A stretch of 64,000 nt of DNA. Source: Bacteroidota bacterium (lineage in GTDB: Bacteria > Bacteroidota > Bacteroidia > Chitinophagales > Saprospiraceae). A model generated the notes under the pieces. That model saw nothing but the letters and a program-made list of their open reading frames with translations. It searched no databases and had not been told where the DNA came from. Made by a program: the position numbers and the translations under genes. Below, piece by piece: positions 1-14,883 of the stretch (the first letter of the stretch is position 1; every line of letters starts with the position of its first letter). The stretch is from the NCBI GenBank assembly GCA_039028895.1, contig JBCCHF010000013.1, positions 4,360 to 68,359 on the forward strand, written 5' to 3'.

Positions 1-754
1 ACCCAACAGAGAACTCGATAGCAGCTTTGTCTGGCATGGCATTTTGCATACCTACAACGTATGGGATATGCTCTGCGATGGCCTTCGCCTGTACTTCCGA
101 GTAACAGGAATTGAGAATAACGCATTTGACCGAATCTTTGAATAACTCAAAAAGACTGTTTAAGACACCTGGATTGACAAAAACACCATGGCCTTCATTG
201 GATTCAAGGATAATGCCTTCTTTCAGGCCGTGTCCGGAAAAGTGAACTATTGTAGGTTCGTGGTCCAATAATGCTCTCCTAAGGTCTGAAGTTCTGGTAG
301 CGTGTCTTTGAATAAACTCAAACCGATTACGGTGTTTGCCCATCTTGATCCCGTCTTCAATTTCTCGGCTTTCTTCGCCAATTCTGATTCTGGAGGTATT
401 TTCAGGATTTGCTGCTGCAAATAGAATTTTTATGGTACCCTGATTGACAGGAGGTTGGGGATTATTATTGGTGGGGTTATCAGGTGTTTTTACAGAATCT
501 TCGATGTGAGCATCATCTTCAATTTCCTTGGACATTTCAATAATAGCAAACCGTATGCGGTTTAGGGTTTCAGGTTTGGCTCCCATCCCAAATCTTTCAT
601 CACGTTTATATTGTGCATATTGCCCCTGGAGCATGATGACCTGAGTTTCTTCATCTCCCCCTTTTGAAGAATAATACTGACTTAAAGCAGTCAGAGCTTC
701 ATCAATTCTTCCTGAAGCCATATGATTAGTAATTACATCTTTGAGCTTGGCCAT
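1..754 (-). CDS. Cytoplasmic caspase-like CHAT-type domain protein with N-terminal helical effector-associated-like domain (C-terminus lies beyond window edge)
   Basis: The ORF is open to the window edge, so it is absent from the ORF track. Hand translation of the minus strand from ATG (754..752) gives MAKLKDVITNHMASGRIDEALTALSQYY...TIKILFAAANPENTSRIRIGEESREIEDGI...EPTIVHFSGHGLKEG...VKCVILNSCYSEVQAKAI with no stop down to position 1. The His (FSGHG) and Cys (LNSCY) lie about 45 aa apart, as in the caspase/CHAT dyad. The first ~80 aa form a small all-helical module. No signal peptide. Confidence 0.6.
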   Translation of the reverse strand, partial: MAKLKDVITNHMASGRIDEALTALSQYYSSKGGDEETQVIMLQGQYAQYKRDERFGMGAKPETLNRIRFAIIEMSKEIEDDAHIEDSVKTPDNPTNNNPQPPVNQGTIKILFAAANPENTSRIRIGEESREIEDGIKMGKHRNRFEFIQRHATRTSDLRRALLDHEPTIVHFSGHGLKEGIILESNEGHGVFVNPGVLNSLFELFKDSVKCVILNSCYSEVQAKAIAEHIPYVVGMQNAMPDKAAIEFSVG

Positions 755-866
755 GCCTGTCGCAATTATATTTTCCGGTTAAGGGAATAATATACGAAAT
801 ATGGGTATTAACCAAGTAAATCAACAAATTTGTAATTTACAGGTCTATCCTCAAATCTACATCAAT

Positions 867-3152
867 ATGAATCCTATTCGAATTATCTTTTCCCTGGTCT
901 TGGTGGTCTCTTTTTCTATAAATCAATCAAATGCCCAGGTAGCATCATCTGACTCACTATTCCTGGTTGATTTTTACAATTCTACTAACGGTAGTGACTG
1001 GAATAATGACTTAAACTGGTTAACGGCCAATCCGGTAAGTACCTGGTTTGGTGTAAGTGTAGTGGACTGGAACGGCGTGTTCAGAGTGTCTGCAATTGAA
1101 TTGAATGGGAATAATGTAACAGGAACCATTCCGGCTGATATCAATGGTTTGGCCGCCTTGGAGCGGTTCGACATTTTTACAAATGGAGTAGGGGGCAGTT
1201 TCCCAAATATCACCTCACTTGATCGGTTGGAATACCTCGACCTAGGGCGGAACTTGTTTACCAGTATTGGTGCTATGCCAACTCCGATTAATGTATTGGA
1301 AACTTTCTATTGTGACCAAAACCAGTTAACAGATCTGCCCGACCTGAGTGGGTTAGATGACCTTAACCTTTTTTGGTGTAATGATAACCGATTAACCTTT
1401 GAAGATGTTGGACCTTATGTAGGTGACTTTATTGATTACAGTTACGCGCCGCAGGCCGACCTCGATCCTCAGACAATATATATTCCATTTGGATCATTTA
1501 TCAATCTTTTCATTTTTGTTGATAATTATCCCAATTTGGTTTATGACTGGTTTTTTGGTGGCGCGAATGTACATACCGGCACTTTTTATGGCTTGTCTAA
1601 TGTAAGCGAAATTGATGATGGAATTTATACCATTGAGGTAACCCACCCCAGTGTTCCGGGCCTTACGATAACCGGGTTTATCGATCTTGTTGTCCTTTTT
1701 CAGGATAATAACGGAGGACAGTTTAATCCTCAGCAATTTATGGTGCAGTTTGAAGATGGCGCTGATCCGGCCAATATTGCTGCGTTGGAAACCTTGCTCA
1801 TTTCAGAAGGTGCCTTCAAGATCAAAGACTGTATGTGCGGAGATAGACTACAGTTGTGGGGTGCGAGTACGGCTTTTGATGTTGAGGAACGCCGACAAAC
1901 TGCCGAAGACCAATTAGATGTTGACAGTACAGGCACCAACTACCTGGTAAATATCATGCCACTACAGGAAGGGGAAGGACCCGTTACCTCCTGGGCACCG
2001 CCCAATACACCGACAGGTGCAAATCCTGTCAAAATTGCAGTGATTGATACAGGTATTGATCCTGAAAACATCGATATCAAGGACTTTATCTGGACGAACG
2101 ACGATGAACAGGTAGCAATGACGGATGATGACCTTAACTGTTATATCGATGACGAAGTGGGCTACGATTTTTTCAATGAAAGAACAGACCCTATAGACCT
2201 TAACGGGCATGGTACACATGTTAGTGGTTTGATATTGAGAGATTATCCGGCTAATGTAGCCGCGGAGCTTATGAATCTCAAGGTACATACAGGTGAAATC
2301 GGATTCCTCTTTGACGCCGCCTGCGCGATGCGTTATGCTATTGACAAACAGGCCGATGTTATGAATCTCAGTTTCGGTTATTATGGCGACCGTTCCTATA
2401 TTCTTGAATCAGCAGTTACAGATGCTGAATCAGCAGATATTGTATTAGTAGCTTCTGCAGGTAATGGTATTGACGATTCTGGTGTTGATACGGATATCAA
2501 TTTCCACTGGCCAAGCAGTTTTGAAAACAATAACATGATCACAGTTGGAGCACTTAATCCTGATCTTAATGATCTGGCCACTTATTCTAATTTCGGTCCA
2601 AATAGTATCGATATTTGTGCGCCTGGCTCCTTGATTGAAAGTACGCATTTAAGCAATGGTTTCGTGATTTTAAGTGGCACCTCCATGGCAGCAGGATTAG
2701 TAACGAGAACCGCCTCCGTAATCAGAGGTTTATACCCGAGCCGAAATGCTTATGAAGTCATTAGTTGTATCTTGAATACCGCAGAATTTACTCCTAACCT
2801 TGATGGAAAAATTTTGACAAGTGGACAATTGAATCATGGTAATGCCATTAATGACTGCCTGGTGATCAGCACCGAAAATATTCCCGAAAGGGAAATGAAG
2901 ATATTCCCTCAGCCTTTTGCTGATATGGTAACTATCCAATTGGATAATGTCATTCCCGGAGCTGTAGAATTTGAGATATATGATACCTTCGGCCAATTAA
3001 TTTTCAGACAAAACCTTGAAAATATTGAGCGAATTGATTGGAATGGGACAACCTTGTCAGGAAATATCGCACCATCAGGGGCTTACCCGTTTCTGTTAAA
3101 AACGAAAGAAGGTCAACATAGCGGAATTCTGATTAAATTAGTGAATGATTAA
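867..3152 (+). CDS. Secreted leucine-rich-repeat + subtilisin-family (S8) serine peptidase with T9SS C-terminal sorting domain
   Basis: The ORF is 801..3152. The Met at 867 begins a signal peptide (MNPIRIIFSLVLVVSFSINQSNAQ), so 867 is preferred. LRR segment: NWLTANPVSTWFGVSV, LEYLDLGRNLF, LTDLPDLSGL. S8 triad motifs: AVIDTGID / HGTHVSG / SGTSMAAG. The last ~80 aa look like a T9SS type-A sorting domain (KIFPQPFADMVTIQL...GAYPFLLKT). Confidence 0.85.
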   Translation: MNPIRIIFSLVLVVSFSINQSNAQVASSDSLFLVDFYNSTNGSDWNNDLNWLTANPVSTWFGVSVVDWNGVFRVSAIELNGNNVTGTIPADINGLAALERFDIFTNGVGGSFPNITSLDRLEYLDLGRNLFTSIGAMPTPINVLETFYCDQNQLTDLPDLSGLDDLNLFWCNDNRLTFEDVGPYVGDFIDYSYAPQADLDPQTIYIPFGSFINLFIFVDNYPNLVYDWFFGGANVHTGTFYGLSNVSEIDDGIYTIEVTHPSVPGLTITGFIDLVVLFQDNNGGQFNPQQFMVQFEDGADPANIAALETLLISEGAFKIKDCMCGDRLQLWGASTAFDVEERRQTAEDQLDVDSTGTNYLVNIMPLQEGEGPVTSWAPPNTPTGANPVKIAVIDTGIDPENIDIKDFIWTNDDEQVAMTDDDLNCYIDDEVGYDFFNERTDPIDLNGHGTHVSGLILRDYPANVAAELMNLKVHTGEIGFLFDAACAMRYAIDKQADVMNLSFGYYGDRSYILESAVTDAESADIVLVASAGNGIDDSGVDTDINFHWPSSFENNNMITVGALNPDLNDLATYSNFGPNSIDICAPGSLIESTHLSNGFVILSGTSMAAGLVTRTASVIRGLYPSRNAYEVISCILNTAEFTPNLDGKILTSGQLNHGNAINDCLVISTENIPEREMKIFPQPFADMVTIQLDNVIPGAVEFEIYDTFGQLIFRQNLENIERIDWNGTTLSGNIAPSGAYPFLLKTKEGQHSGILIKLVND

Positions 3153-6036
3153 TCGGTTTTTAACCCTTTTCATTCTACTAATTTTATCGAGTATTTTATA
3201 TGGTCAGAGTTGGCCTGATTCCTTGCAGTCTGCCATTGACAAGGCATTCGATCTATACGACGATCAACGTGATGAAGAAGCCATTACTGCACTGCTCTCG
3301 TCTATTGAAGGAGCTGAAAACGCTTTAGGAACCCAAAATCTCGATGTTGCCAATGCCTGGCATAATCTCGGGGTTTTATTCTACAGACTATATCGCTATG
3401 ATGAGGCAATTGAAGCCTATGCTCAAGCACTCAAGGTTAGAGAAGACAATCCTGAAACCCAGCCTGTTGACCTGATCAAAAGTTATCATAACATAGGAGC
3501 AGCCTACCAGTATAAAGGCGATTATATCAATGCTGTTGAATACCTCGAAGGTGCCATTTCAAAAAACAGCGATCCCTTAGTTAGTGAACGCCGCCTGATT
3601 AGGAGTTATCGCGAAATAGCCCGGGCTTATTCCAAAATGGGTGAACATGCCAAAGCCTTGGGGTTTTACGACTCTATTTGCGCCTTTTATCTTGAATCTG
3701 AAAACTATTTGTCACTCGCCTCCACCTATAACGATATGGCCAGTCTTTACACAAGGAAAGACAACGGCGCAAAAGCTTTGGAGATGTCTGCTAAGGCAAT
3801 TGACTTTTTTGATAAAATAGAAGAGAAATCCGATCGTGCTTATCGCTCTCTGGCTAATATCTACCATAATTATGCACTTGGCTATGAAGTTGAGGAAAAT
3901 TTTCAGGAAGCCTTAAATGCTTATGAAAAATCGCTTGACCTTTATTTGAAATACGCTGGTTCGGGTAGTGATCTGGTGGCAATTAATCATAATAACCAGG
4001 GGAATGTGCACCGAAAAAATAACCAGTTCAAAAAAGCGCTTGAACACTATAGCCAGGCCATCGAATTGAATGAAGCTAACAATAATTCCGCTGCCCTGGC
4101 CGATAATTACCATAACCTTGGAGAACTAAATGTCAAACAAGGCAATTATGCCAATGCACTTGAGGCTTATGACAAAGCGCTGGCTCTCCTTACCGAAAAT
4201 GATAAGGCGAATAGTAAAAACACTGATGCCGCTCCGACAGGAGACAAACTAGGCCTGCTGACCAATTTGTCAGCAAAAGCCGTATGTCATTACCAACTTT
4301 TCCTTGCCGAAGGACATGTCGATGAACTTGAAACGGCATTAACCGTATTTGAAGAAACAGATAAGGTAATTGACCAACTAAGACAGAATTATCGTTTTGA
4401 TGTATCAAAAAGCCAGTTGACAGAAACCATGCTTCCGGTGTTTGAATCTTCAATTTCAGCTTGTATTGCTCAATACCAGGTTACCCGCTCGCCCGCCTAT
4501 CTCGAAACAGCATTCAGGTATGCAGAAAAAAGTAAGGCGGTTGCACTATTGGAAGCCATTACCGACTCAAAAGCCAAATCATTTGTCGGCCTCCCCGCAG
4601 AGCTAAAAGAACAGGAAAGACAACTTAAGGTAGACATCGCCTTCCAGGAAGAAGAATTGCGAATTGAAAAATCGTTTAGCTCCCCCAGCCCTTCAGCCAT
4701 AAAAAGGATTTCAGAAAAACTGATCGGTCTTCGTCAATCTTACGAAGCGCTCATTGCGCGGATTGAAAAGGAATACCCAGACTATCACCTCCTGAAATAC
4801 AATCTTGAAACCCGTTCAGTACCACAGATACAGAGTGGTTTGTTACAGTCCGGACAAGGTCTGATCGAATATTTCGTAGGGGCAGACAGCTTGTTTGTCT
4901 TTTATGTTAATGCAAAGTCTTTCAGAGTTTTGACCCTTGAAACACCCCCTTTTCTTGGCAAAATGGTAAAAGACATGAGAGAAGGTATTTCAGGCTTCCA
5001 TCTCTCTGCTACCCCTACAGATATTGAATACGAAAGATTGGCAAAGCTCTATACGGTTCGTGCCTCTCAACTTTATCAATTATTGATTGGAAAACTTGTT
5101 GATGAAGGCATTGATTTGCCCAATGATCTGGTCATCATCCCAGATGGAGTATTGAATTACCTGCCGTTTGAAGCATTACTAACCGAAACTGCGAAAGGTG
5201 CACTTTCTTTTAGCTCCATGCCGTATTTTATCAATAAGCATAATGTCAGTTACTGCTATTCCGCCACATTATTGGACGAAATGGTGTCAAAAAAAGTTAA
5301 GGGCAAAAGTGCTGGCCTCCTAGCGATGGCACCGATCTTTAAAGGTGGTAGTGACCTTTCTCCACTTGAAAGCAATACGTCGGAAGTAGAACAGATAATG
5401 ACTATCTGGAATGGTGACATGAGACTTGGAGATCAGGCTACCAAGTCTGCTTTTGTTGACCTTGCCGGAAATTATCGCCTGCTACATCTGGCCACTCACG
5501 CCGAAGCCTTATCTGAAGATGGCGACCGATCATATCTTGCATTTACGCAATCAGGTAGTGAGCCATTGGACGCCAGGTTACTGGTAAAAGAACTGTATAA
5601 TTTACCATTGAATGCAGACCTTGTAGTTTTGAGCGCATGCGAAACAGGCATAGGTGAATTCAGGAGGGGAGAAGGATTGATTAGCCTGGCCAGGGGTATG
5701 TCATATGCAGGTGCAACAGGGATTGTAACAACCTTGTGGAAAATTGACGATGCGAAAACCTCGGAATTGATGGCCAATTTTTATAAATACCTAAAGTCCG
5801 GGAAATCAAAGTCCATTGCTCTGACGGAAGCTAAGCGTAAGTATATTACTTCGAATAAAGACTATGATGCTCACCCCTTCTTTTGGGCAGCGCCAGTTGC
5901 AATTGGGGATATGGGATCAATTAGGCTCGACCTGTCTCCTGCAACAAACCTGGGCTGGTACCTTGGGATAGGGGTGTTGTTGGTTTTGGCGATTGGGTAT
6001 TTTTTCAGAAAAAAGCCTAAATCAAAATCAGTTTAA
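3145..6036 (+). CDS. TPR-repeat + CHAT (caspase-like peptidase) domain protein with signal peptide and C-terminal membrane anchor
   Basis: 963 aa. The ATG overlaps the upstream S8 stop by 8 nt (AATGATTAA). Signal-like N-terminus MINRFLTLFILLILSSILYGQ. Many TPR-like units (e.g. AWHNLGVLFYRLYRYDEAIEAYAQAL, SYHNIGAAYQYKGDYINAVEYLEGAI). The CHAT domain has His785 (LHLATHA, cac 5497..5499) and Cys832 (VVLSACETG, tgc 5638..5640). Terminal TM helix WYLGIGVLLVLAIGYFF is followed by RKKPKSKSV. Confidence 0.85.
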   Translation: MINRFLTLFILLILSSILYGQSWPDSLQSAIDKAFDLYDDQRDEEAITALLSSIEGAENALGTQNLDVANAWHNLGVLFYRLYRYDEAIEAYAQALKVREDNPETQPVDLIKSYHNIGAAYQYKGDYINAVEYLEGAISKNSDPLVSERRLIRSYREIARAYSKMGEHAKALGFYDSICAFYLESENYLSLASTYNDMASLYTRKDNGAKALEMSAKAIDFFDKIEEKSDRAYRSLANIYHNYALGYEVEENFQEALNAYEKSLDLYLKYAGSGSDLVAINHNNQGNVHRKNNQFKKALEHYSQAIELNEANNNSAALADNYHNLGELNVKQGNYANALEAYDKALALLTENDKANSKNTDAAPTGDKLGLLTNLSAKAVCHYQLFLAEGHVDELETALTVFEETDKVIDQLRQNYRFDVSKSQLTETMLPVFESSISACIAQYQVTRSPAYLETAFRYAEKSKAVALLEAITDSKAKSFVGLPAELKEQERQLKVDIAFQEEELRIEKSFSSPSPSAIKRISEKLIGLRQSYEALIARIEKEYPDYHLLKYNLETRSVPQIQSGLLQSGQGLIEYFVGADSLFVFYVNAKSFRVLTLETPPFLGKMVKDMREGISGFHLSATPTDIEYERLAKLYTVRASQLYQLLIGKLVDEGIDLPNDLVIIPDGVLNYLPFEALLTETAKGALSFSSMPYFINKHNVSYCYSATLLDEMVSKKVKGKSAGLLAMAPIFKGGSDLSPLESNTSEVEQIMTIWNGDMRLGDQATKSAFVDLAGNYRLLHLATHAEALSEDGDRSYLAFTQSGSEPLDARLLVKELYNLPLNADLVVLSACETGIGEFRRGEGLISLARGMSYAGATGIVTTLWKIDDAKTSELMANFYKYLKSGKSKSIALTEAKRKYITSNKDYDAHPFFWAAPVAIGDMGSIRLDLSPATNLGWYLGIGVLLVLAIGYFFRKKPKSKSV

Positions 6037-6047
6037 CTTGCTTTTTC

Positions 6048-6845
6048 TTATTTGCTCTTTTCCAGAATTTCCAAGGCTTCGGAGTTGTATTCATGACCCT
6101 GGTCATTAGCGATCCGCTGCAAATGCTCTTGCCACTCATTTTCTCTTTCGAGGGCCAGGTAACATAATGCAGCAAACCAATCAGCTTTTTCTTTAAACCT
6201 TGGACTATTTGTCGCGACGACTGTCTCGAATGCCTTTATTGCACTTCCGTAATTCTCATTTTCGAATTGGGCGTAGCCAAGATATATTTGAGCATCGGTG
6301 TACTGTGGATCGTCTGCAGGAATTGAAGCGAAGTAGTCCGCTGCGTCTCCAAATGCTTTATCGGTAAAGGCGATGATGCCTTCTTTCAATCGATGCTCAG
6401 TGCCGGAAGCATCCCTGACCAATGGCATTTTGTGTTCTGGAGTATAAGTCGCTAGAATCTCTTCTGTGCTCAAGACACCAGTAGGCCGCAATAGGAACCA
6501 GAAAATAAGAACAGTAACCACCAGGCTTGCGGCCATAGCAATTAGTGGCAAGATGCCGCGCTCGCGACGAGATTTCGACGGGTTGATATCACGGATATTG
6601 TCGTTATCTGATTGAGCACCTTTTTCTTGTTGGCTAATTGCCTTTTCCCAACTATCGAGATTGGTTTGAAAGTCTTCAGCATTCAAGGTGTCAAAACCAA
6701 GCTTTAATTGTCGGTAATGCTCAACTTCGGCTTTTAGAGATTCGTCCTTTGACATTTGGTCAATGAATTGTTGTTCCTCAGCTTTTTCCATATCGCCGTT
6801 GAGGAATCTTTGGATGATCTCTATATTTTGTAATTCCTGATCCAT
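6048..6845 (-). CDS. Single-pass anti-sigma-like membrane protein with periplasmic TPR-like domain
   Basis: 265 aa, starting 15 nt downstream of the ECF sigma gene on the same strand. N-terminal helical region (IEIIQRFLNGDMEKAEEQQFIDQM), one TM helix (ILPLIAMAASLVVTVLIFWFLL), and a C-terminal TPR-like region (AQIYLGYAQFENENYGSAIKAFETVV, ADWFAALCYLALERENEW). The anti-sigma role rests on position and architecture, not on a recognised family motif. Confidence 0.55.
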   Translation of the reverse strand: MDQELQNIEIIQRFLNGDMEKAEEQQFIDQMSKDESLKAEVEHYRQLKLGFDTLNAEDFQTNLDSWEKAISQQEKGAQSDNDNIRDINPSKSRRERGILPLIAMAASLVVTVLIFWFLLRPTGVLSTEEILATYTPEHKMPLVRDASGTEHRLKEGIIAFTDKAFGDAADYFASIPADDPQYTDAQIYLGYAQFENENYGSAIKAFETVVATNSPRFKEKADWFAALCYLALERENEWQEHLQRIANDQGHEYNSEALEILEKSK

Positions 6846-6860
6846 AGCCCTGGTTTTTAG

Positions 6861-7427
6861 TTAATTACCATCTGATTTGGCGATCAGGTCACGCATTTTC
6901 TTCAAACAGAGGAATTTACGCTTTCTAACTGCTTGTTCGTTCTTTAGTTCCATAGTATGCATTACGGCGTCTGTACTGTAAGCTTTGATAAAAAGCAATT
7001 CCAGCAATTGCCTGCAAGGCTCGCCGATCATATTAAGTAACCGTCGGACAAGGTCCGCCTGGTCGCGATGATTATACGAGTCCATGATTGAGTAGTCTAC
7101 CTGGCTTTTAATGACGGTGTCGTCCAGATCACTTACTTTCAAATGTTTGTCCCTGAACCGCTTCAGGAAAACATTCCTGCCGATAGAAAACAAGTAGGTT
7201 TTCAAACTGCTTGTAAGCTCGGTTAATTTACCCTCCTTGATATTAAAATAAAAGATGGTAAAGGCTTTCTGATAGACATCAACAGCATCTTCCCTGGGAC
7301 AACTGAATTTCTGTGCCCCCCAAGCCAGGAAATTTTCCCTGTATTCATGGTAAAGTTGTTGAAGCAGTCGCTGATCTCCCATTCTGATCTGCTCCAATCG
7401 CACTTTTTCTGTTGTGTTCTTATCCAT
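6861..7427 (-). CDS. ECF-type RNA polymerase sigma-70 family factor
   Basis: 188 aa. Region 2-like segment (LLQQLYHEYRENFLAWGAQKF...EDAVDVYQKAFTIFY) and region 4 HTH (CRQLLELLFIKAYSTDAVMHTMELKNEQAVRKRKFLCLKKMRDLI). Size and layout are typical of group IV sigma factors. Confidence 0.85.
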   Translation of the reverse strand: MDKNTTEKVRLEQIRMGDQRLLQQLYHEYRENFLAWGAQKFSCPREDAVDVYQKAFTIFYFNIKEGKLTELTSSLKTYLFSIGRNVFLKRFRDKHLKVSDLDDTVIKSQVDYSIMDSYNHRDQADLVRRLLNMIGEPCRQLLELLFIKAYSTDAVMHTMELKNEQAVRKRKFLCLKKMRDLIAKSDGN

Positions 7428-7572
7428 TTATACCACAAGGATTGAAAGTATTCCTTCGAATTTAGAAAAAAACTACAGCTTCAGGGAATACATTGGAATA
7501 CGAAGGGGATAAAAGGTTGAATTGAAGGGGCAAATGACTTTGCTCCGATTAATAAAACCTAAAAAAATAATT

Positions 7573-8853
7573 ATGAAAGCCCTAACAGTTGAATTAAGAC
7601 CATTAGACCTGAGTTCATACTTAATATTACTCTCAATGTTTTTGATGTTTGCTATTGCCAATACCGGTTGTGAGCATATCGAAATACCCGAAACTCCGGA
7701 AACACCAATCGTAGAGATGGATCCTACAGATAGTATTGCAGGCCAGTATGTGGTGATCATGAAAGAAGAATTCATGACCCCGTTTTACCATTTTACCTTT
7801 AATGGTAACCCCGAAAACAGAGGAGATCAAAAAGAAGAATACGAATCCTACCAGATCCAGGTTGAGGAAGAACTTGAAGCTTATCTCACCCAGATCGGCA
7901 TTGAGTGGGATTCCATCCACACCGTTTACGCTGCTTCTATGATCGGTTTTGCGGGAGGTATTTCTAATGAACAGGCCAATATGCTGAGCTTTGAACCAAT
8001 GGTTGATGTTGTTGAGCCGGATTTTGAAGATTTGGTAATAGAAACAAAAGGTAAAAGCCATGTAAAAGGCGGTGGCGATCCACAAACAGTAGATTGGGGA
8101 GTCAGCCAGATTGGATCAACAGATATGACCGGATCTCCCTGGTGGGCATTTGTGTTGGATACCGGAATCGACCTTGATCACCCTGATTTGAATGTCAGAA
8201 CAGACTATAGCAAGTCATATGTCTTTTTCCGCGGACCAAATGATGAAAACGGACATGGAACACATGTTGCAGGCACCATAGCAGCCATTGACAACTCCAT
8301 TGGTACCATGGGCGTGGCTGCTGGAGCCCCGGTAGTAGCCGTCAAAGTATTAAAAGAAAATGGTCGCGGACGAATGGCGCGGATTGTGAAAGGGATTGAT
8401 TATGCATGTGGCGTAAGTATCCCAGGGGACGTTGTAAATCTAAGCCTTGGCGGAAAAGATCGCCGCCGCAGGACCAGGGTTTACTCAAGGGCAATTCAGC
8501 CAGTAGCGGCCAAAGGTGTGTTTGTCGCAATCGCTGCTGGCAATAACGGCAGGAATGCTGATAGTCAGGTCCCCGCAAGAATAAATGGTGTAAATATCTA
8601 TACCGTTTCTGCCATGAATTCAGGAGGATCTTTTGCGGGTTTCTCAAACTTCGGAAGTGATGTGGATTTTTGTGCTCCAGGTGTAGGTATATTGTCTCTT
8701 GACAAAGATGGCGGTTGTACTACGATGAGTGGGACCTCCATGGCAACACCACATGTAGCAGGAATCTTGCTTGCGAATGGTGGCGTTGTTAATACGTCTG
8801 GTAATGTTGCTGGTGATCCTGATGGGGTTGCTGATCCGATTGCTGGAATGTAA
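7573..8853 (+). CDS. Subtilisin-family (S8) serine peptidase lipoprotein with N-terminal I9-like propeptide
   Basis: The ORF is 7522..8853. The Met at 7573 gives MKALTVEL...LSMFLMFAIANTGC, a lipoprotein-type signal ending in Cys. Propeptide-like region: YVVIMKEE...VDVVEPDFE. S8 triad motifs: FVLDTGIDLDHPDL / HGTHVAGT / SGTSMATPHVAG. Confidence 0.85.
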   Translation: MKALTVELRPLDLSSYLILLSMFLMFAIANTGCEHIEIPETPETPIVEMDPTDSIAGQYVVIMKEEFMTPFYHFTFNGNPENRGDQKEEYESYQIQVEEELEAYLTQIGIEWDSIHTVYAASMIGFAGGISNEQANMLSFEPMVDVVEPDFEDLVIETKGKSHVKGGGDPQTVDWGVSQIGSTDMTGSPWWAFVLDTGIDLDHPDLNVRTDYSKSYVFFRGPNDENGHGTHVAGTIAAIDNSIGTMGVAAGAPVVAVKVLKENGRGRMARIVKGIDYACGVSIPGDVVNLSLGGKDRRRRTRVYSRAIQPVAAKGVFVAIAAGNNGRNADSQVPARINGVNIYTVSAMNSGGSFAGFSNFGSDVDFCAPGVGILSLDKDGGCTTMSGTSMATPHVAGILLANGGVVNTSGNVAGDPDGVADPIAGM

Positions 8854-12431: not shown

Positions 12432-12830
12432 ATGAATAATAAAATTCAACCATCAGAAGCAGAACTTGAGATTCTGCAAATTCTTTGGGAGTATCAGCCA
12501 TGCACAATTAAGCTTGTGCATGAACAGATCAGTAAAACCAAAGATGTAGGTTATACCACGACACAAAAACAGATCCAGAGGATGTTCGACAAAGGCCTTG
12601 TTGAACGTATTCCTGGTGAAGGAAAATCGCATCTCTATTCGGCGTTAGCCCAAAAAGAGGAAGTCAGAACCAGGCTTTTTGATCGGCTTGTTGAAAATGC
12701 ATTCGGCAACTCGGTTAGTAAGATGGTTATGCATGCTCTTGGCGGCGGAAAAGCCTCGAAAAAAGAAATTGAAGAGATAAGAAAGTATTTGGACGAACTC
12801 GATAAACGCTCCACAAATGACAATTCCTGA
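12432..12830 (+). CDS. BlaI/MecI/CopY-family winged-helix transcriptional repressor
   Basis: 132 aa. SEAELEILQILWEYQPCTIKLVHEQI...GYTTTQKQIQRMFDKGLVER matches the Penicillinase_R-type wHTH layout. It overlaps the downstream M56 gene by 14 nt. Confidence 0.85.
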   Translation: MNNKIQPSEAELEILQILWEYQPCTIKLVHEQISKTKDVGYTTTQKQIQRMFDKGLVERIPGEGKSHLYSALAQKEEVRTRLFDRLVENAFGNSVSKMVMHALGGGKASKKEIEEIRKYLDELDKRSTNDNS

Positions 12831-14883
12831 ATCCTTATCCGTTATTTTCCAAAGCATTGGCTGGACACTTATCCACAGTTTGTGGCAAGTTTCGCTAATT
12901 GTTGCTGTCACTGGTTTGATCTTAACCCAGGTCGACCGCCGAAGGGCTGATCTCAGGCATAATGTGCTGTCTGTAGCGCTTTTTGCTTGCGGCATTGCAG
13001 GGCTTGGAACTTTTGTGTATTTCTTTTCATCCTTTAATACTCATGGTCTTGAGTGGAGCGGTAAGCTTTTGCTCATTGCCGGAACTGAAGCCCCGGTACA
13101 ACTTTCCGGAACGGTATCCGAAGGCTTTAAATTCTGGTGGCCATTGGGCGTCAGCGGCTATGTCTGGATAGCCGGTGTGCTCTGGATCTCAGCTTTTACT
13201 CTACTCTGCCTCAAATATTTGGTGAGTTACAGAATGAGTGTCAGATTGAGGACCAAAGGCCTGACCAATATTCCATTTTTATGGGAATGCAAATTTCGTG
13301 AACTCGTGATTCAAGCGGGGATATCGAAAGACATCGTGATCCAGTTCTCACGCTTTGTCAACAACCCTGTTAGTCTGGGCTTTTTCAAACCGATAATTCT
13401 TTTGCCGCTGGGGTACTTCACGATGTTGTCGCCAGCACAGGCAGAGGCCGTTATTTTGCATGAGCTCGCCCATATTCGCAGGAATGATTATTTGTGGAAC
13501 CTGATGCAGACTGTGATAAGACTCGGTTTCTTTTTCCATCCTGCAGTCTGGTTTCTTTATAAGCAAATCGAAATCGAAAGGGAGAATGCTTGTGATGATT
13601 TCGCTTTGTCAATCTCAGGAATGCCCACCGAATATGCAAAGGCATTGGGTTACCTGAAGATCAACATTTTCAAATCTCAAAATCCCTTAGCCATGTATTT
13701 GATCAATAATGAAAACGAATTGCTTTCGAGGCTAAAAAGGCTCGTCGGCGATAACGGATATGTTAATCGCAACCAATGGAACAATAGCAAATTATTAGCT
13801 CCCATTTTACTTTTCGCGGCCTGTTTCTTCTTTATGGCTTTTGATGCCTTGAGGCCTGACAGCAAACTGCCCATTCCGGTAACGGAAAATAGTACTGAGT
13901 TTATGTTTGCACCGATGGTAGTCGATACCATTGTGCCCATCGAAGAAGCCACAGAATCGACACCTGCAGAACAAGAGTTAAAAGAACATCTCAAGCAAGT
14001 TGAAAAGGAGATGGCCATGGAGAAAAAGATGGCAGAAAAAGCTGCTAAAGCAGCCGCCAAGGAACTTGAAAAAGCAAAATTAGCCGAAAAAGCCGCCAAA
14101 GAAGAAAAGGCCAAAGCAGAAAAAGCCAAAACGAAGGCCGAAAAAGCCAAAGCGAAGGCAAAGGCCAAACGCTTAAGTGAATCAGAAGAAGGAGCCGTAC
14201 CCGCTCCACATCCTACTCCGCATCATTTATCGGAGCATGAACATCACCATGACCACCACCATGACCACGTAGATCATGGTGACCATGAAGACCATTCCGA
14301 TGCTTGGGAAGAGCACTACCGGGAGTCTCTGAAAAATCTTGAGCAGGAAAAGGCCCGGTACAGAAAACAAATAGAACGCGCGGAAAAGGAATACGAAATA
14401 GCTATGGAACAGCGCCGTATATCAAGCGATGAACATCGCTTTAGACTGGCCGAAGAACGCGAACGATTTGAGCGTCAAAACAAGGAGGCCCGCGCCGCTT
14501 ATAGAGAACAATTAGCCGCGATGCAGGAAAAAAGAAAACTGGAGATGGAACACGTTCAGGCGCAAAGAAAACACGAGCTGGCCCAGGTACAGCAAGAAAG
14601 AAAGCTGATGCTGGAAAGAATAAGACTGGCAGAACATTCGCAAATGCGCAACTTTAAGTCTACCATGCTCAATGCACTGGTCTCAGATAAACTGATCAGT
14701 TCTTCGAAAGACCGAGTTTTCCTGGAGTTTGATAATGATATACTAAAGGTAAATGGCAAACAACTTAACAATAGGCTGAAAGAAAAATATCTGGATCTAA
14801 TAGCAGAACACCAGTTGGATCTTGGCTCGGAGTGGAGCATTGAAATGACACCTACGAATTTTTCGAAGAATTCGAATAATTAG
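12817..14883 (+). CDS. BlaR1-like M56 zinc-metallopeptidase signal transducer with atypical coiled-coil / His-rich C-terminal domain
   Basis: 688 aa. N-terminal TM helices. HEXXH motif HELAHIRRNDY. A further TM helix (LLAPILLFAACFFFMAF). Then a K/A/E low-complexity stretch, the His cluster HHLSEHEHHHDHHHDHVDHGDHEDH, and a long charged coiled-coil-like region. No penicillin-binding (SxxK) sensor domain is seen. Confidence 0.8.
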   Translation: MTIPESLSVIFQSIGWTLIHSLWQVSLIVAVTGLILTQVDRRRADLRHNVLSVALFACGIAGLGTFVYFFSSFNTHGLEWSGKLLLIAGTEAPVQLSGTVSEGFKFWWPLGVSGYVWIAGVLWISAFTLLCLKYLVSYRMSVRLRTKGLTNIPFLWECKFRELVIQAGISKDIVIQFSRFVNNPVSLGFFKPIILLPLGYFTMLSPAQAEAVILHELAHIRRNDYLWNLMQTVIRLGFFFHPAVWFLYKQIEIERENACDDFALSISGMPTEYAKALGYLKINIFKSQNPLAMYLINNENELLSRLKRLVGDNGYVNRNQWNNSKLLAPILLFAACFFFMAFDALRPDSKLPIPVTENSTEFMFAPMVVDTIVPIEEATESTPAEQELKEHLKQVEKEMAMEKKMAEKAAKAAAKELEKAKLAEKAAKEEKAKAEKAKTKAEKAKAKAKAKRLSESEEGAVPAPHPTPHHLSEHEHHHDHHHDHVDHGDHEDHSDAWEEHYRESLKNLEQEKARYRKQIERAEKEYEIAMEQRRISSDEHRFRLAEERERFERQNKEARAAYREQLAAMQEKRKLEMEHVQAQRKHELAQVQQERKLMLERIRLAEHSQMRNFKSTMLNALVSDKLISSSKDRVFLEFDNDILKVNGKQLNNRLKEKYLDLIAEHQLDLGSEWSIEMTPTNFSKNSNN
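14005..14172 (+). repeat. Imperfect short tandem repeats (GAAAAAGCCAAA / GCGAAGGCA type) inside the BlaR1-like CDS, encoding (E/A)KAK low complexity
   Basis: The DNA reads ...gccaaagcagaaaaagccaaaacgaaggccgaaaaagccaaagcgaaggcaaaggccaaa..., translated KAKAEKAKTKAEKAKAKAKAK. This also explains the spurious antisense ORF 13677..14168. Confidence 0.6.

Follow-up and report, generated by a model that had tools for sequence, protein, structure and literature searches.

A recurrent gene module of a predicted periplasmic TPR-CHAT protease, an ECF-type sigma factor and a candidate anti-sigma factor in Bacteroidota

The regulated intramembrane proteolysis of anti-sigma factors is known in its canonical form from the DegS/RseP-RseA and PrsW/RasP-RsiW systems, and the known site-1 proteases are serine or metallo enzymes. 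In the polysaccharide utilisation loci of Bacteroidota, extracytoplasmic function (ECF) sigma factors, anti-sigma factors and SusC-like proteins form units in which the sensor is both a member of the regulon and the transducer. The subject of this work is a block of five genes within a stretch of 64,000 nt (hereafter the window; assembly GCA_039028895.1, contig JBCCHF010000013.1, positions 4,360 to 68,359), which is part of a 6.6-Mb, 99.8% complete Bacteroidota genome from a marine metagenome; the relatives of this genome are labelled Saprospiraceae or Lewinellaceae, and the sequencing runs that contain the sequence are DNA runs of a marine metagenome only. In the block, the gene of a predicted periplasmic protease composed of tetratricopeptide repeats (TPRs) and a CHAT domain adjoins a gene pair for an ECF-type sigma factor and a single-pass, anti-sigma-like protein. 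These three genes constitute a multi-copy module that occurs across the phylum. That the CHAT protein and the ECF pair are functionally linked is well supported by the conservation of the triad, the conserved predicted topology, the catalytic dyad and a fused homologue, DdvA, and the module looks like a split, two-protein version of the DdvA/DdvS logic.

DdvA of Myxococcus xanthus (PMC11506125; PDB 8rot, 8rw5) unites a zinc-binding anti-sigma domain, a transmembrane (TM) helix, a linker and a periplasmic TPR-CHAT part in one polypeptide. It needs RseP, and its CHAT domain was proposed by the authors to be the site-1 protease (PMC11506125). Reports of DdvA are confined to Myxococcota and a single Comamonas; it controls a CBASS/CRISPR defence island (PMC11506125). 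Csx29, the TPR-CHAT protein of the type III-E craspase, was shown experimentally to cleave Csx30, by which an ECF-like sigma factor is freed (PMC10028731). For ECF54 of Actinobacteria, subtilase and CHAT genes are described as conserved beside the ECF sigma gene, with proteolytic control proposed from genomic context alone, and this group has no anti-sigma factor (PMC8999054). A split sigma/anti-sigma/TPR-CHAT module of Bacteroidota was not found described in the literature searched, the coverage of which was incomplete.

Open reading frame (ORF) calls combined with Pfam and NCBIfam scans gave the five genes of the block: a first subtilase (S8a), the TPR-CHAT gene, the anti-sigma-like gene, the ECF-type sigma gene and a second subtilase (S8b). 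Structures were modelled with AlphaFold2 (AF2), and all features are collated in Table 1. The module extends beyond the interval 3145-7427, to which an earlier reading made from the sequence alone (the sequence-only reading) had been confined, by S8a on the left and S8b on the right. The genes to the right of S8b, which encode a DUF6544 protein, a DUF5916 protein, a BlaR1-like protein and a LytTR two-component system, are unrelated to it.

Table 1. Features of the five-gene block (positions in the window; nt: nucleotides, res: residues; LRR: leucine-rich repeat; T9SS: type IX secretion system; HMM: hidden Markov model).
Feature	Position	Strand	Basis or remark
Promoter-like element GGAATAATATACGAAATATGGGTAT (GGAATA-N14-GGTAT) upstream of S8a-CHAT operon	784..808	+	sequence reading, genome-wide pattern count
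S8a: LRR + subtilase (S8) + weak T9SS C-terminal sorting domain	801..3152	+	Pfam; likely start ATG at 867
TPR-CHAT gene, 963 aa	3145..6036	+	ORF call, Pfam, AF2, Foldseek
Signal peptide	res 1-20; nt 3145-3204	+	predicted from sequence
TPR array	res ~27-357	+	Pfam TPR families over about res 40-360
Helical scaffold	res ~368-566	+	domain layout of TPR-CHAT protein
CHAT/caspase-like domain	res 640-922; nt 5062-5910	+	Pfam CHAT
Catalytic His785 codon	5497..5499	+	invariant in alignment A3; H in 74/76 members
Catalytic Cys832 codon	5638..5640	+	C in 73/76 members; at least 90% conserved in A3
Tether between CHAT domain and TM helix	~10-15 residues	+	domain layout
TM helix of TPR-CHAT protein	res ~932-955; nt 5938-6009	+	AF2; Kyte-Doolittle gives 933-951
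Basic tail RKKPKSKSV	C-terminus, after TM helix	+	sequence
Tail-to-tail gap	6037..6047	.	11 nt between the convergent CHAT and anti-sigma stop codons
Anti-sigma-like single-pass protein, 265 aa	6048..6845	-	position, AF2, family motif, weak profiles
Helical N-domain, predicted cytoplasmic	res 1-76; nt 6618-6845	-	AF2; followed by disordered linker
TM helix of anti-sigma-like protein	res 99-119; nt 6489-6551	-	AF2
Juxtamembrane segment, predicted periplasmic	res 120-148	-	domain layout
3-TPR domain, predicted periplasmic	res 149-264; nt 6054-6401	-	weak Pfam TPR_16/TPR_19, AF2
ECF-type sigma factor, 188 aa	6861..7427	-	TIGR02937, TIGR02985, genome ECF HMM
Promoter-like element GGAATACTTTCAATCCTTGTGGTAT directly upstream of sigma ATG	7430..7454	-	sequence reading; within conserved block 7428-7470
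Two GGAATAC copies upstream of S8b, the second reading GGAATACGAAGGGGATAAAAGGTTG	7485..7519	+	second element 7495-7519
S8b: subtilase with I9 propeptide, divergent from sigma	7522..8853	+	Pfam; likely start ATG at 7573

The window module shares with DdvA/DdvS an ECF sigma factor with a single-pass anti-sigma system and a TPR-CHAT His-Cys dyad on the periplasmic side (anti-sigma role and location being predictions for the window), and the AF2 model of the window TPR-CHAT protein matches DdvA at E about 1e-13. In contrast to DdvA, the anti-sigma-like and TPR-CHAT proteins are encoded by separate genes on opposite strands; the CHAT protein carries a Sec signal peptide and a C-terminal anchor in place of an N-terminal anti-sigma domain; and the anti-sigma-like protein has a small TPR domain of its own and no zinc motif (CHCC / HxxxCxxC). 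The neighbours in the window are subtilases, DUF6544, DUF5916 and BlaR1-like genes rather than an anti-phage defence island, and PADLOC returned no specific defence-system match and no Cas match of note for the module. The two TPR-CHAT proteins are linked by the fold search alone, as no similarity of the window sequence to DdvA was detectable by phmmer. By sequence, the best PDB match on the CHAT region was Csx29 (8d9h, E = 1.5e-4; designed TPRs otherwise), which also led the structural matches when these were ranked by TM-score (0.55). The craspase is cytoplasmic, soluble, RNA-guided and bound to Cas7-11, whereas the window protein is predicted to be exported and membrane-anchored, and no cas genes were present among the neighbours scanned around the module.

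With canonical regulated intramembrane proteolysis, the locus has in common a single-pass anti-sigma candidate downstream of an ECF sigma gene, a predicted membrane-tethered protease with a putative sensor domain for proteins or peptides near the membrane, and an RseP homolog in the genome (M50 family; PF02163, E = 2.5e-54, a 449-aa ORF at C31:73275-74522). It differs in that the candidate protease is a clan-CD cysteine peptidase with a putative TPR/helical sensor of ~550 residues, and in that a dedicated, separate paralog of it stands beside each sigma/anti-sigma pair. The likeness to polysaccharide utilisation units lies in the many paralogous ECF/anti-sigma pairs, each with an envelope sensor and secreted or surface hydrolases. 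In those units, however, the transducer is an outer-membrane TonB-dependent receptor that touches a FecR-type anti-sigma factor, whereas the window module would use an inner-membrane-anchored protease and a TPR-type anti-sigma factor, and its outputs would be proteases instead of glycoside hydrolases. The window sigma further differs from the actinobacterial ECF54 (PMC8999054) by its TM/TPR anti-sigma-like partner and its relatives in Bacteroidota.

The recurrence of the triad was determined at three levels. Sigma factors of the source genome were counted with an HMM built from the ECF sigmas of this genome, and anti-sigma-like proteins with an HMM of the TPR anti-sigma family. The genome contains 17 CHAT matches, 14 of which are large TPR-CHAT proteins, and 52 ECF-type sigma factors. 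An ECF sigma gene was found within 3.5 kb of 10 of the 14 large paralogs, two more having weaker sigma-like neighbours; for comparison, the proportion with a sigma gene within 6 kb was 8.5% among the 414 other ORFs of at least 800 aa (odds ratio 27, Fisher p = 4.5e-8). Of the sigma paralogs in the genome, those most similar to the window sigma mostly adjoin other TPR-CHAT genes. Thirty related genomes were then surveyed, and regions of 19 kb were fetched around 60 homologs, inside which 64 CHAT genes were located. TPR-CHAT homologs were carried by 17 of the 30 genomes besides the source genome, in up to 15 copies each. A sigma gene lay within 5 kb of 36 of the 64 CHAT genes (~56%; ~17 genera of the family and order) and a TPR anti-sigma gene at 31; when only loci with complete flanks were counted, a sigma gene was present at 25 of 43. 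In a sample of 200 genomes from across the phylum, 33 besides the source genome had homologs, and among the 39 loci fetched from other orders and classes about 28 had a sigma gene within 6 kb, usually together with an anti-sigma gene. The triad of sigma, TPR-membrane protein and CHAT genes is thus a neighbourhood conserved in genome, family and phylum, by which the first check proposed in the sequence-only reading came out clearly positive, and its recurrence in paralogs and other genomes, far above background, is not due to chance.

The partners are also matched in number and divergence. Among the 13 best-scoring members of the TPR anti-sigma family in the source genome, 10 belong to CHAT loci, so that the family is nearly exclusive to them. 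Over 31 genomes, the copy numbers of anti-sigma and CHAT genes were correlated with rho 0.88 (0.59 with genome size removed). Co-divergence of CHAT and anti-sigma proteins gave a Mantel r of 0.34, a value reached by 0 of 2000 permutations; the corresponding values were 0.43 for sigma/anti-sigma and 0.21 for CHAT/sigma. Gene order was tallied over 114 TPR-CHAT genes, of which 74 had a sigma gene within 6 kb. In these 74 modules, CHAT was divergent from sigma in 36, convergent and tail-to-tail in 27 and on the same strand in 11, and 13 modules had tail-to-tail CHAT/anti-sigma junctions of -71 to +20 nt. A contig from another metagenome (L119) carries the orthologous genes in convergent orientation with an overlap of 8 nt (identity 69% for CHAT and 58% for the anti-sigma-like protein). 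In a second syntenic ortholog (L118), the sigma/anti-sigma pair is kept between the same flanking genes; this contig ends 119 nt past the anti-sigma gene at a long palindrome, and any CHAT gene that follows would lie beyond its end.

The TPR-CHAT protein begins with a classic signal peptide, MINRFLTLFILLILSSILYG, followed after the predicted cleavage site by QSW; a Gln directly after the cut is common in Bacteroidota. Multiple TPR families of Pfam match its N-terminal part, and the CHAT profile PF12770 is matched over positions 4-289 of 289 (E = 8.5e-57; 193 bits, cut-off 24). The dyad residues lie in the motifs HLATHA (H785) and LSACETG (C832), and their conservation was counted over 76 members of the TPR-CHAT family. 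The AF2 model (predicted local distance difference test, pLDDT, 88.5; predicted TM-score, pTM, 0.86) was compared with the PDB by Foldseek, the top matches being separase, Csx29 and DdvA with E values of 1e-13 to 1e-15. As modelled, the fold is that of the separase/craspase/DdvA class, in which TPRs, a scaffold and a caspase-like domain are combined. Judged by profile, dyad and fold, the protein is a CHAT / clan CD caspase-fold cysteine peptidase, for which proteolytic activity is predicted. The strict conservation of the dyad indicates that it is under selection and that catalysis matters, on whichever substrate, since the dyad itself does not indicate one.

Topology was compared among 15 paralogs of the source genome. 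Signal peptide, C-terminal TM helix and basic tail are all present in 12, and the other three have the signal peptide only. The protein is therefore predicted to be periplasmic and, through its C-terminal anchor, to stay attached to the inner membrane on its outer face. In the anchored paralogs, the CHAT domain always ends 10-20 residues ahead of the TM helix, which in the model would bring the active site right up to the membrane, to the point at which a single-pass substrate comes out of it, while the TPR/helical part of ~550 residues would project into the periplasm. The TPR array can be described as a fast-diverging, hypervariable candidate sensor.

The anti-sigma-like gene follows the sigma gene on the same strand after 15 nt, and this pairing is kept in nearly all modules. 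The AF2 model of its product (pLDDT 85) comprises an N-domain with the helices H2-15, H21-33, H35-53 and H56-76. Its periplasmic TPR domain superposes on 3-TPR units such as YbgF (TM-score 0.84, target-normalised) and is also BamD-like; a Foldseek search with the model returned generic TPR proteins only. Members of the family share the N-terminal motif IxxYLxGxLxxxExxxFExxLxxDxxLxxEV (alignment A2). Residues 1-98 contain no Cys and no Cys/His zinc motif. Matches to NCBIfam models were weak and below threshold (NF052375, E = 7e-4; NF047528, E = 1.5e-3). A word-based search of limited sensitivity in an index of 5.8 billion proteins returned a single match, a homolog with 61% identity. The position after sigma, the helical N-domain with one TM helix in the model, the family motif and the weak profile matches make this protein a candidate anti-sigma factor, for which binding and inhibition of sigma are predicted. 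The juxtamembrane segment was considered as a conserved cleavage site and rejected: it carries a weak motif, LxAxY[FY]xPYP (43-55%), and is no better conserved than the cytoplasmic linker.

The sigma protein matches TIGR02937 over positions 2-163 of 165 (E = 6.9e-9; 35.5 bits against a cut-off of 42.9), TIGR02985 (E = 2.5e-9) and Sigma70_r2 (19 bits, cut-off 24), and it scores 142 bits against the HMM of the ECF sigmas of its own genome. Because the ECF profiles match over the full length yet below the curated cut-offs, it is classed by profile as a divergent ECF (group IV) member. All sequence observations of the sequence-only reading agree with these results. The signal peptide, C-terminal helix and basic tail of the CHAT protein were borne out by translation, Kyte-Doolittle analysis and AF2; the dyad lies at the residues named and is kept throughout nearly all of the family; and the periplasmic placement of the TPR-CHAT part agrees with the predicted topology of most paralogs. 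The convergent neighbour at a distance of 11 nt, described as a single-pass protein with a TPR-like domain, was recovered as such, as was the ECF sigma gene upstream of it, if with profile scores below the cut-offs.

In the window, the triad lies between two subtilase genes. S8a was matched by Peptidase_S8 (3.5e-39), LRR_4 (1.1e-7), CHU_C (2.9e-6) and Por_Secre_tail (2e-5). Its catalytic motifs DTGID, HGTHVSG and GTSMAAG are present, the D/H/S triad thus being intact, and translation from ATG 867 begins with MNPIRIIFSL..., a signal peptide. Its sorting domain scored 27.8 bits for CHU_C (cut-off 27), 25.2 for Por_Secre_tail (27) and 16.5 for TIGR04183 (23). The end of S8a overlaps the start of the CHAT gene by 8 nt. 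S8b was matched by Peptidase_S8 (1.5e-39) and Inhibitor_I9 (1.4e-3); it is missing from the ortholog L118 and is therefore an accessory part of the module. In the source genome, an S8 subtilase lies directly upstream of 6 of the 14 large TPR-CHAT paralogs (within 500 nt in five besides that of the window). Among 36 genes upstream of CHAT that were scanned, 11 encode S8 subtilases, 12 a Por_Secre_tail T9SS sorting domain and 6 LRRs, and S8 or T9SS cargo stands directly upstream of CHAT, always on the same strand, in 15 of the 64 homologs. Subtilases and other T9SS cargo directly upstream of CHAT are common but optional, while sigma, anti-sigma and TPR-CHAT form a constant core; this pattern is expected for a sensing core with interchangeable outputs.

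The pattern GGAATA[A/C]-N14-GGT[AT][TG] precedes all three transcription units of the window module, that is, S8a-CHAT, sigma/anti-sigma and S8b. It resembles the known ECF promoters of the GGAAC-N16-CGT type. The pattern was derived post hoc; genome-wide, 31 matches were counted against ~15 expected, and three of them lie in this module. Even with the post hoc definition, it is far beyond chance that a single module should contain three copies, each upstream of a transcription unit and in matching orientation, and the elements are candidate promoters. The copy next to sigma lies so near the start codon that a transcript made from it would have almost no leader. It is contained in a block of 43 nt (7428-7470, CGAAGGAATACTTT[C/T]AATCCT...ATAAATG) that is conserved in L118, whereas the remaining intergenic region could not be aligned. 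If the motif is sigma-dependent, the S8a-CHAT operon belongs to the regulon in this copy of the module. Upstream of S8b, two direct GGAATAC copies stand 10 nt, or one helical turn, apart (7485-7501) and are flanked by CGAAGG, and an inverse arrangement, CGAAGGAATAC, is found upstream of sigma; these copies could be a transcription-factor binding site rather than a -35 element.

Beyond the window, a family-wide sigma-dependent promoter could not be defined across the modules. Shared bipartite promoter motifs in the divergent intergenic regions of other modules were no better than shuffles, and k-mers shared between sigma-upstream and CHAT-operon-upstream regions, when non-overlapping regions were used, were not enriched over a mismatched control. 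An apparently strong sharing of k-mers was discarded as an artefact of same-strand modules with coinciding regions and of palindromes in overlapping divergent regions. Another motif, (T/G)GTTACC, was enriched 40-90 nt upstream of module sigmas (25 of 74 modules from the loci L018-L117 and the source genome, compared with 11% of the upstream regions of random genes; p = 3e-7), and one genus shows the conserved form TTGTTACC-N19-21-CAGATTC. GTTAC(C) was not found upstream of the window sigma and was not enriched upstream of CHAT operons, which agrees with the view that the CHAT gene is, as a rule, no simple target of sigma.

The reading favoured here, tentatively and at somewhat less than an even chance, is that the CHAT protein acts upstream of sigma as a membrane-tethered sensor-protease. 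In its favour are the constancy of the triad against changing cargo, the almost one-to-one and co-diverging pairing of anti-sigma and CHAT, the geometry of the tether, the conservation of the dyad, the fused DdvA as a "Rosetta stone" (PMC11506125) and the precedent of Csx29, Csx30 and sigma (PMC10028731). The cytoplasmic N-domain of the anti-sigma-like protein would hold sigma, and the TPR array of CHAT, which is long and diverges fast, would sense a protein or peptide cue in the periplasm. The membrane-proximal CHAT domain would then inactivate the anti-sigma factor, by preference through a site-1 cut in its juxtamembrane/TPR periplasmic part, after which the RseP-type site-2 protease of the genome would complete the removal; alternatively, CHAT might bind or release the anti-sigma TPR domain without a cut. 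Once free, sigma would act on promoters of the GGAATA-N14-GGT type before three units (its own operon, S8a-CHAT and S8b); the outcome would be a positive feedback loop, with LRR-subtilases exported through the T9SS. Direct site-1 cleavage of the anti-sigma factor by CHAT is only one part of this reading and is, taken by itself, rather unlikely. Of the proposal in the sequence-only reading that CHAT is the sensor or site-1 protease of the ECF system, the functional link has held, while the site-1 role is still a proposal; envelope stress as the signal gained no support. Several observations weigh against an upstream role of CHAT. The N-domain matches known anti-sigma profiles weakly, the juxtamembrane segment is weakly conserved, and the site-1 role is a hypothesis even for DdvA (PMC11506125). 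About 35-45% of the TPR-CHAT homologs have no sigma gene nearby, so that an ECF pair next to it is not required for the protein to work. Sigma operon and CHAT occupy opposite strands in 63 of the 74 modules (85%), the 36 divergent ones having the classic layout of regulator and target, and the occurrence of one motif before S8a-CHAT, sigma and S8b makes CHAT at least a likely regulon member in this window.

The last three of these points would equally suit an arrangement in which the anti-sigma factor's own TPR domain is the sensor, and TPR-CHAT protein and subtilases are outputs of the regulon only; the CHAT protein, as a membrane-tethered effector protease in the periplasm, might then serve, for example, in the processing, maturation or quality control of co-encoded T9SS cargo, or degrade foreign periplasmic proteins. 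The translational coupling of S8a and CHAT through their overlap and the recurrent same-strand cargo directly upstream of CHAT point the same way, and we regard this arrangement as the main rival and as a real, if doubtful, possibility. It accords poorly with a CHAT gene that is constant where the cargo is optional and variable, with the many modules that are bare triads and contain nothing else to regulate, and with an anti-sigma family that is nearly confined to CHAT loci and diverges in step with CHAT to almost the degree seen with sigma. The DdvA fusion argues for a place of TPR-CHAT on the sensing side (PMC11506125), the GTTAC(C) motif of sigma upstream regions is not enriched before CHAT operons, and k-mers common to both upstream regions do not exceed the mismatched control. 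The supposition of the sequence-only reading that the ECF system controls the protease set gains direct support from the motif copies in the window, a pattern that did not generalise across modules; it and an upstream role of CHAT are not mutually exclusive. Co-divergence, together with the TPR modules in both partners, which are typical for protein-protein docking, would also be explained if CHAT docked on the anti-sigma TPR domain without cleaving it, as a co-receptor, an anti-anti-sigma factor or a negative feedback element, and directed its proteolysis at itself or at another substrate such as an S8 propeptide or a signalling peptide. The I9 propeptide of S8b, which requires removal, would provide such a target; in the window, neither a candidate gene for such a peptide nor another substrate was found, and the strict conservation of the dyad shows that catalysis matters, though not on what. 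A docking role of this kind appears unlikely. That the genes adjoin by chance, or because abundant paralogous families hitch-hike in a genome of large size, is highly improbable: both families are indeed numerous (52 ECF sigmas, about 15 TPR-CHAT proteins), but the enrichment over the genome background is at least 8-fold (p = 4.5e-8), the association is kept across classes of the phylum and in orthologs, and the families co-diverge.

A more far-reaching version of the favoured upstream role, which we consider decidedly unlikely, would make the stand-alone, inner-membrane-tethered caspase-fold protease a dedicated in-trans site-1 protease, with at least 10 paralogous modules per genome acting as sensors in the manner of "protein-utilisation loci". 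In each module, the hypervariable TPR array would be tuned to one protein or peptide cue in the periplasm and would switch on the secreted proteases that belong to it, the cues possibly being fragments cut by the cognate T9SS LRR-subtilase from prey or environmental proteins. If in-trans site-1 cleavage by CHAT is true, regulated intramembrane proteolysis would gain its first site-1 protease of the cysteine (clan CD) type. In DdvA, sensor and substrate are one protein, which blurs whether its CHAT domain performs site-1 cleavage; the split module places the protease and its putative substrate in two genes and so makes the question directly testable. The module also bears on how TPR-CHAT proteases are triggered outside CRISPR systems. 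It is widespread in Bacteroidota, is expanded to at least 10 copies in protein-degrading or predatory Saprospiraceae-like bacteria, often beside T9SS-secreted proteases, and may be a major, undescribed route by which extracellular proteolysis is regulated in these bacteria.

Further observations concern the surroundings of the module and its paralogs. In L118, the place of S8b is taken by a spacer of 320 nt (L118:4685-5003) full of palindromic repeats of the CCGCGGAT type, and the end of the contig just past the anti-sigma gene (L118:6373-6491) is a perfect inverted repeat of ~30 nt. These elements, which resemble repetitive extragenic palindromes (REP) or miniature inverted-repeat transposable elements (MITE) and border the sigma/anti-sigma pair, may mark sites of protease-gene gain and loss. 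A paralogous module of the source genome (C14:8501-19807), the sigma of which is a weak match only, contains an additional gene (C14:10515-12614) for a protein with TPRs, TM segment and a LytS-type histidine kinase (domains assigned by eye), located between the anti-sigma gene and the S8-CHAT operon. Elsewhere in the genome, an ORF of 983 aa on the minus strand (C42:1010-3961), beside an ECF sigma gene (C42:3958-4554), combines an anti-sigma-like N-domain and a TM helix with CarboxypepD_reg, Plug and a TonB-dependent receptor barrel. As an inner-membrane anchor and an outer-membrane barrel are topologically at odds, this ORF may have arisen by gene fusion, by an error of assembly or by reading through from one gene into the next.

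At the left edge of the window (2-754, minus strand, continuing to the left; C13:4217-5113), a small, cytoplasmic-looking protein is encoded in which the effector-associated domain EAD11 (E = 1.7e-10) is fused to a short CHAT-like domain (E = 2.7e-4). Its gene is directly upstream of S8a and divergent from it, so that a CHAT architecture of the conflict-system type stands beside the predicted periplasmic one. On the right, a BlaI/BlaR1-type pair is located at 12432-14883 on the plus strand and is syntenic in L118; the peptidase M56 domain of BlaR1 was matched with E = 1.7e-30, and the label of a BlaI-type repressor for 12432-12830 rests on the Penicillinase_R tag of the L118 ortholog. A few kb from the module, this pair is a further protease-gated signalling unit and probably has no relation to it.

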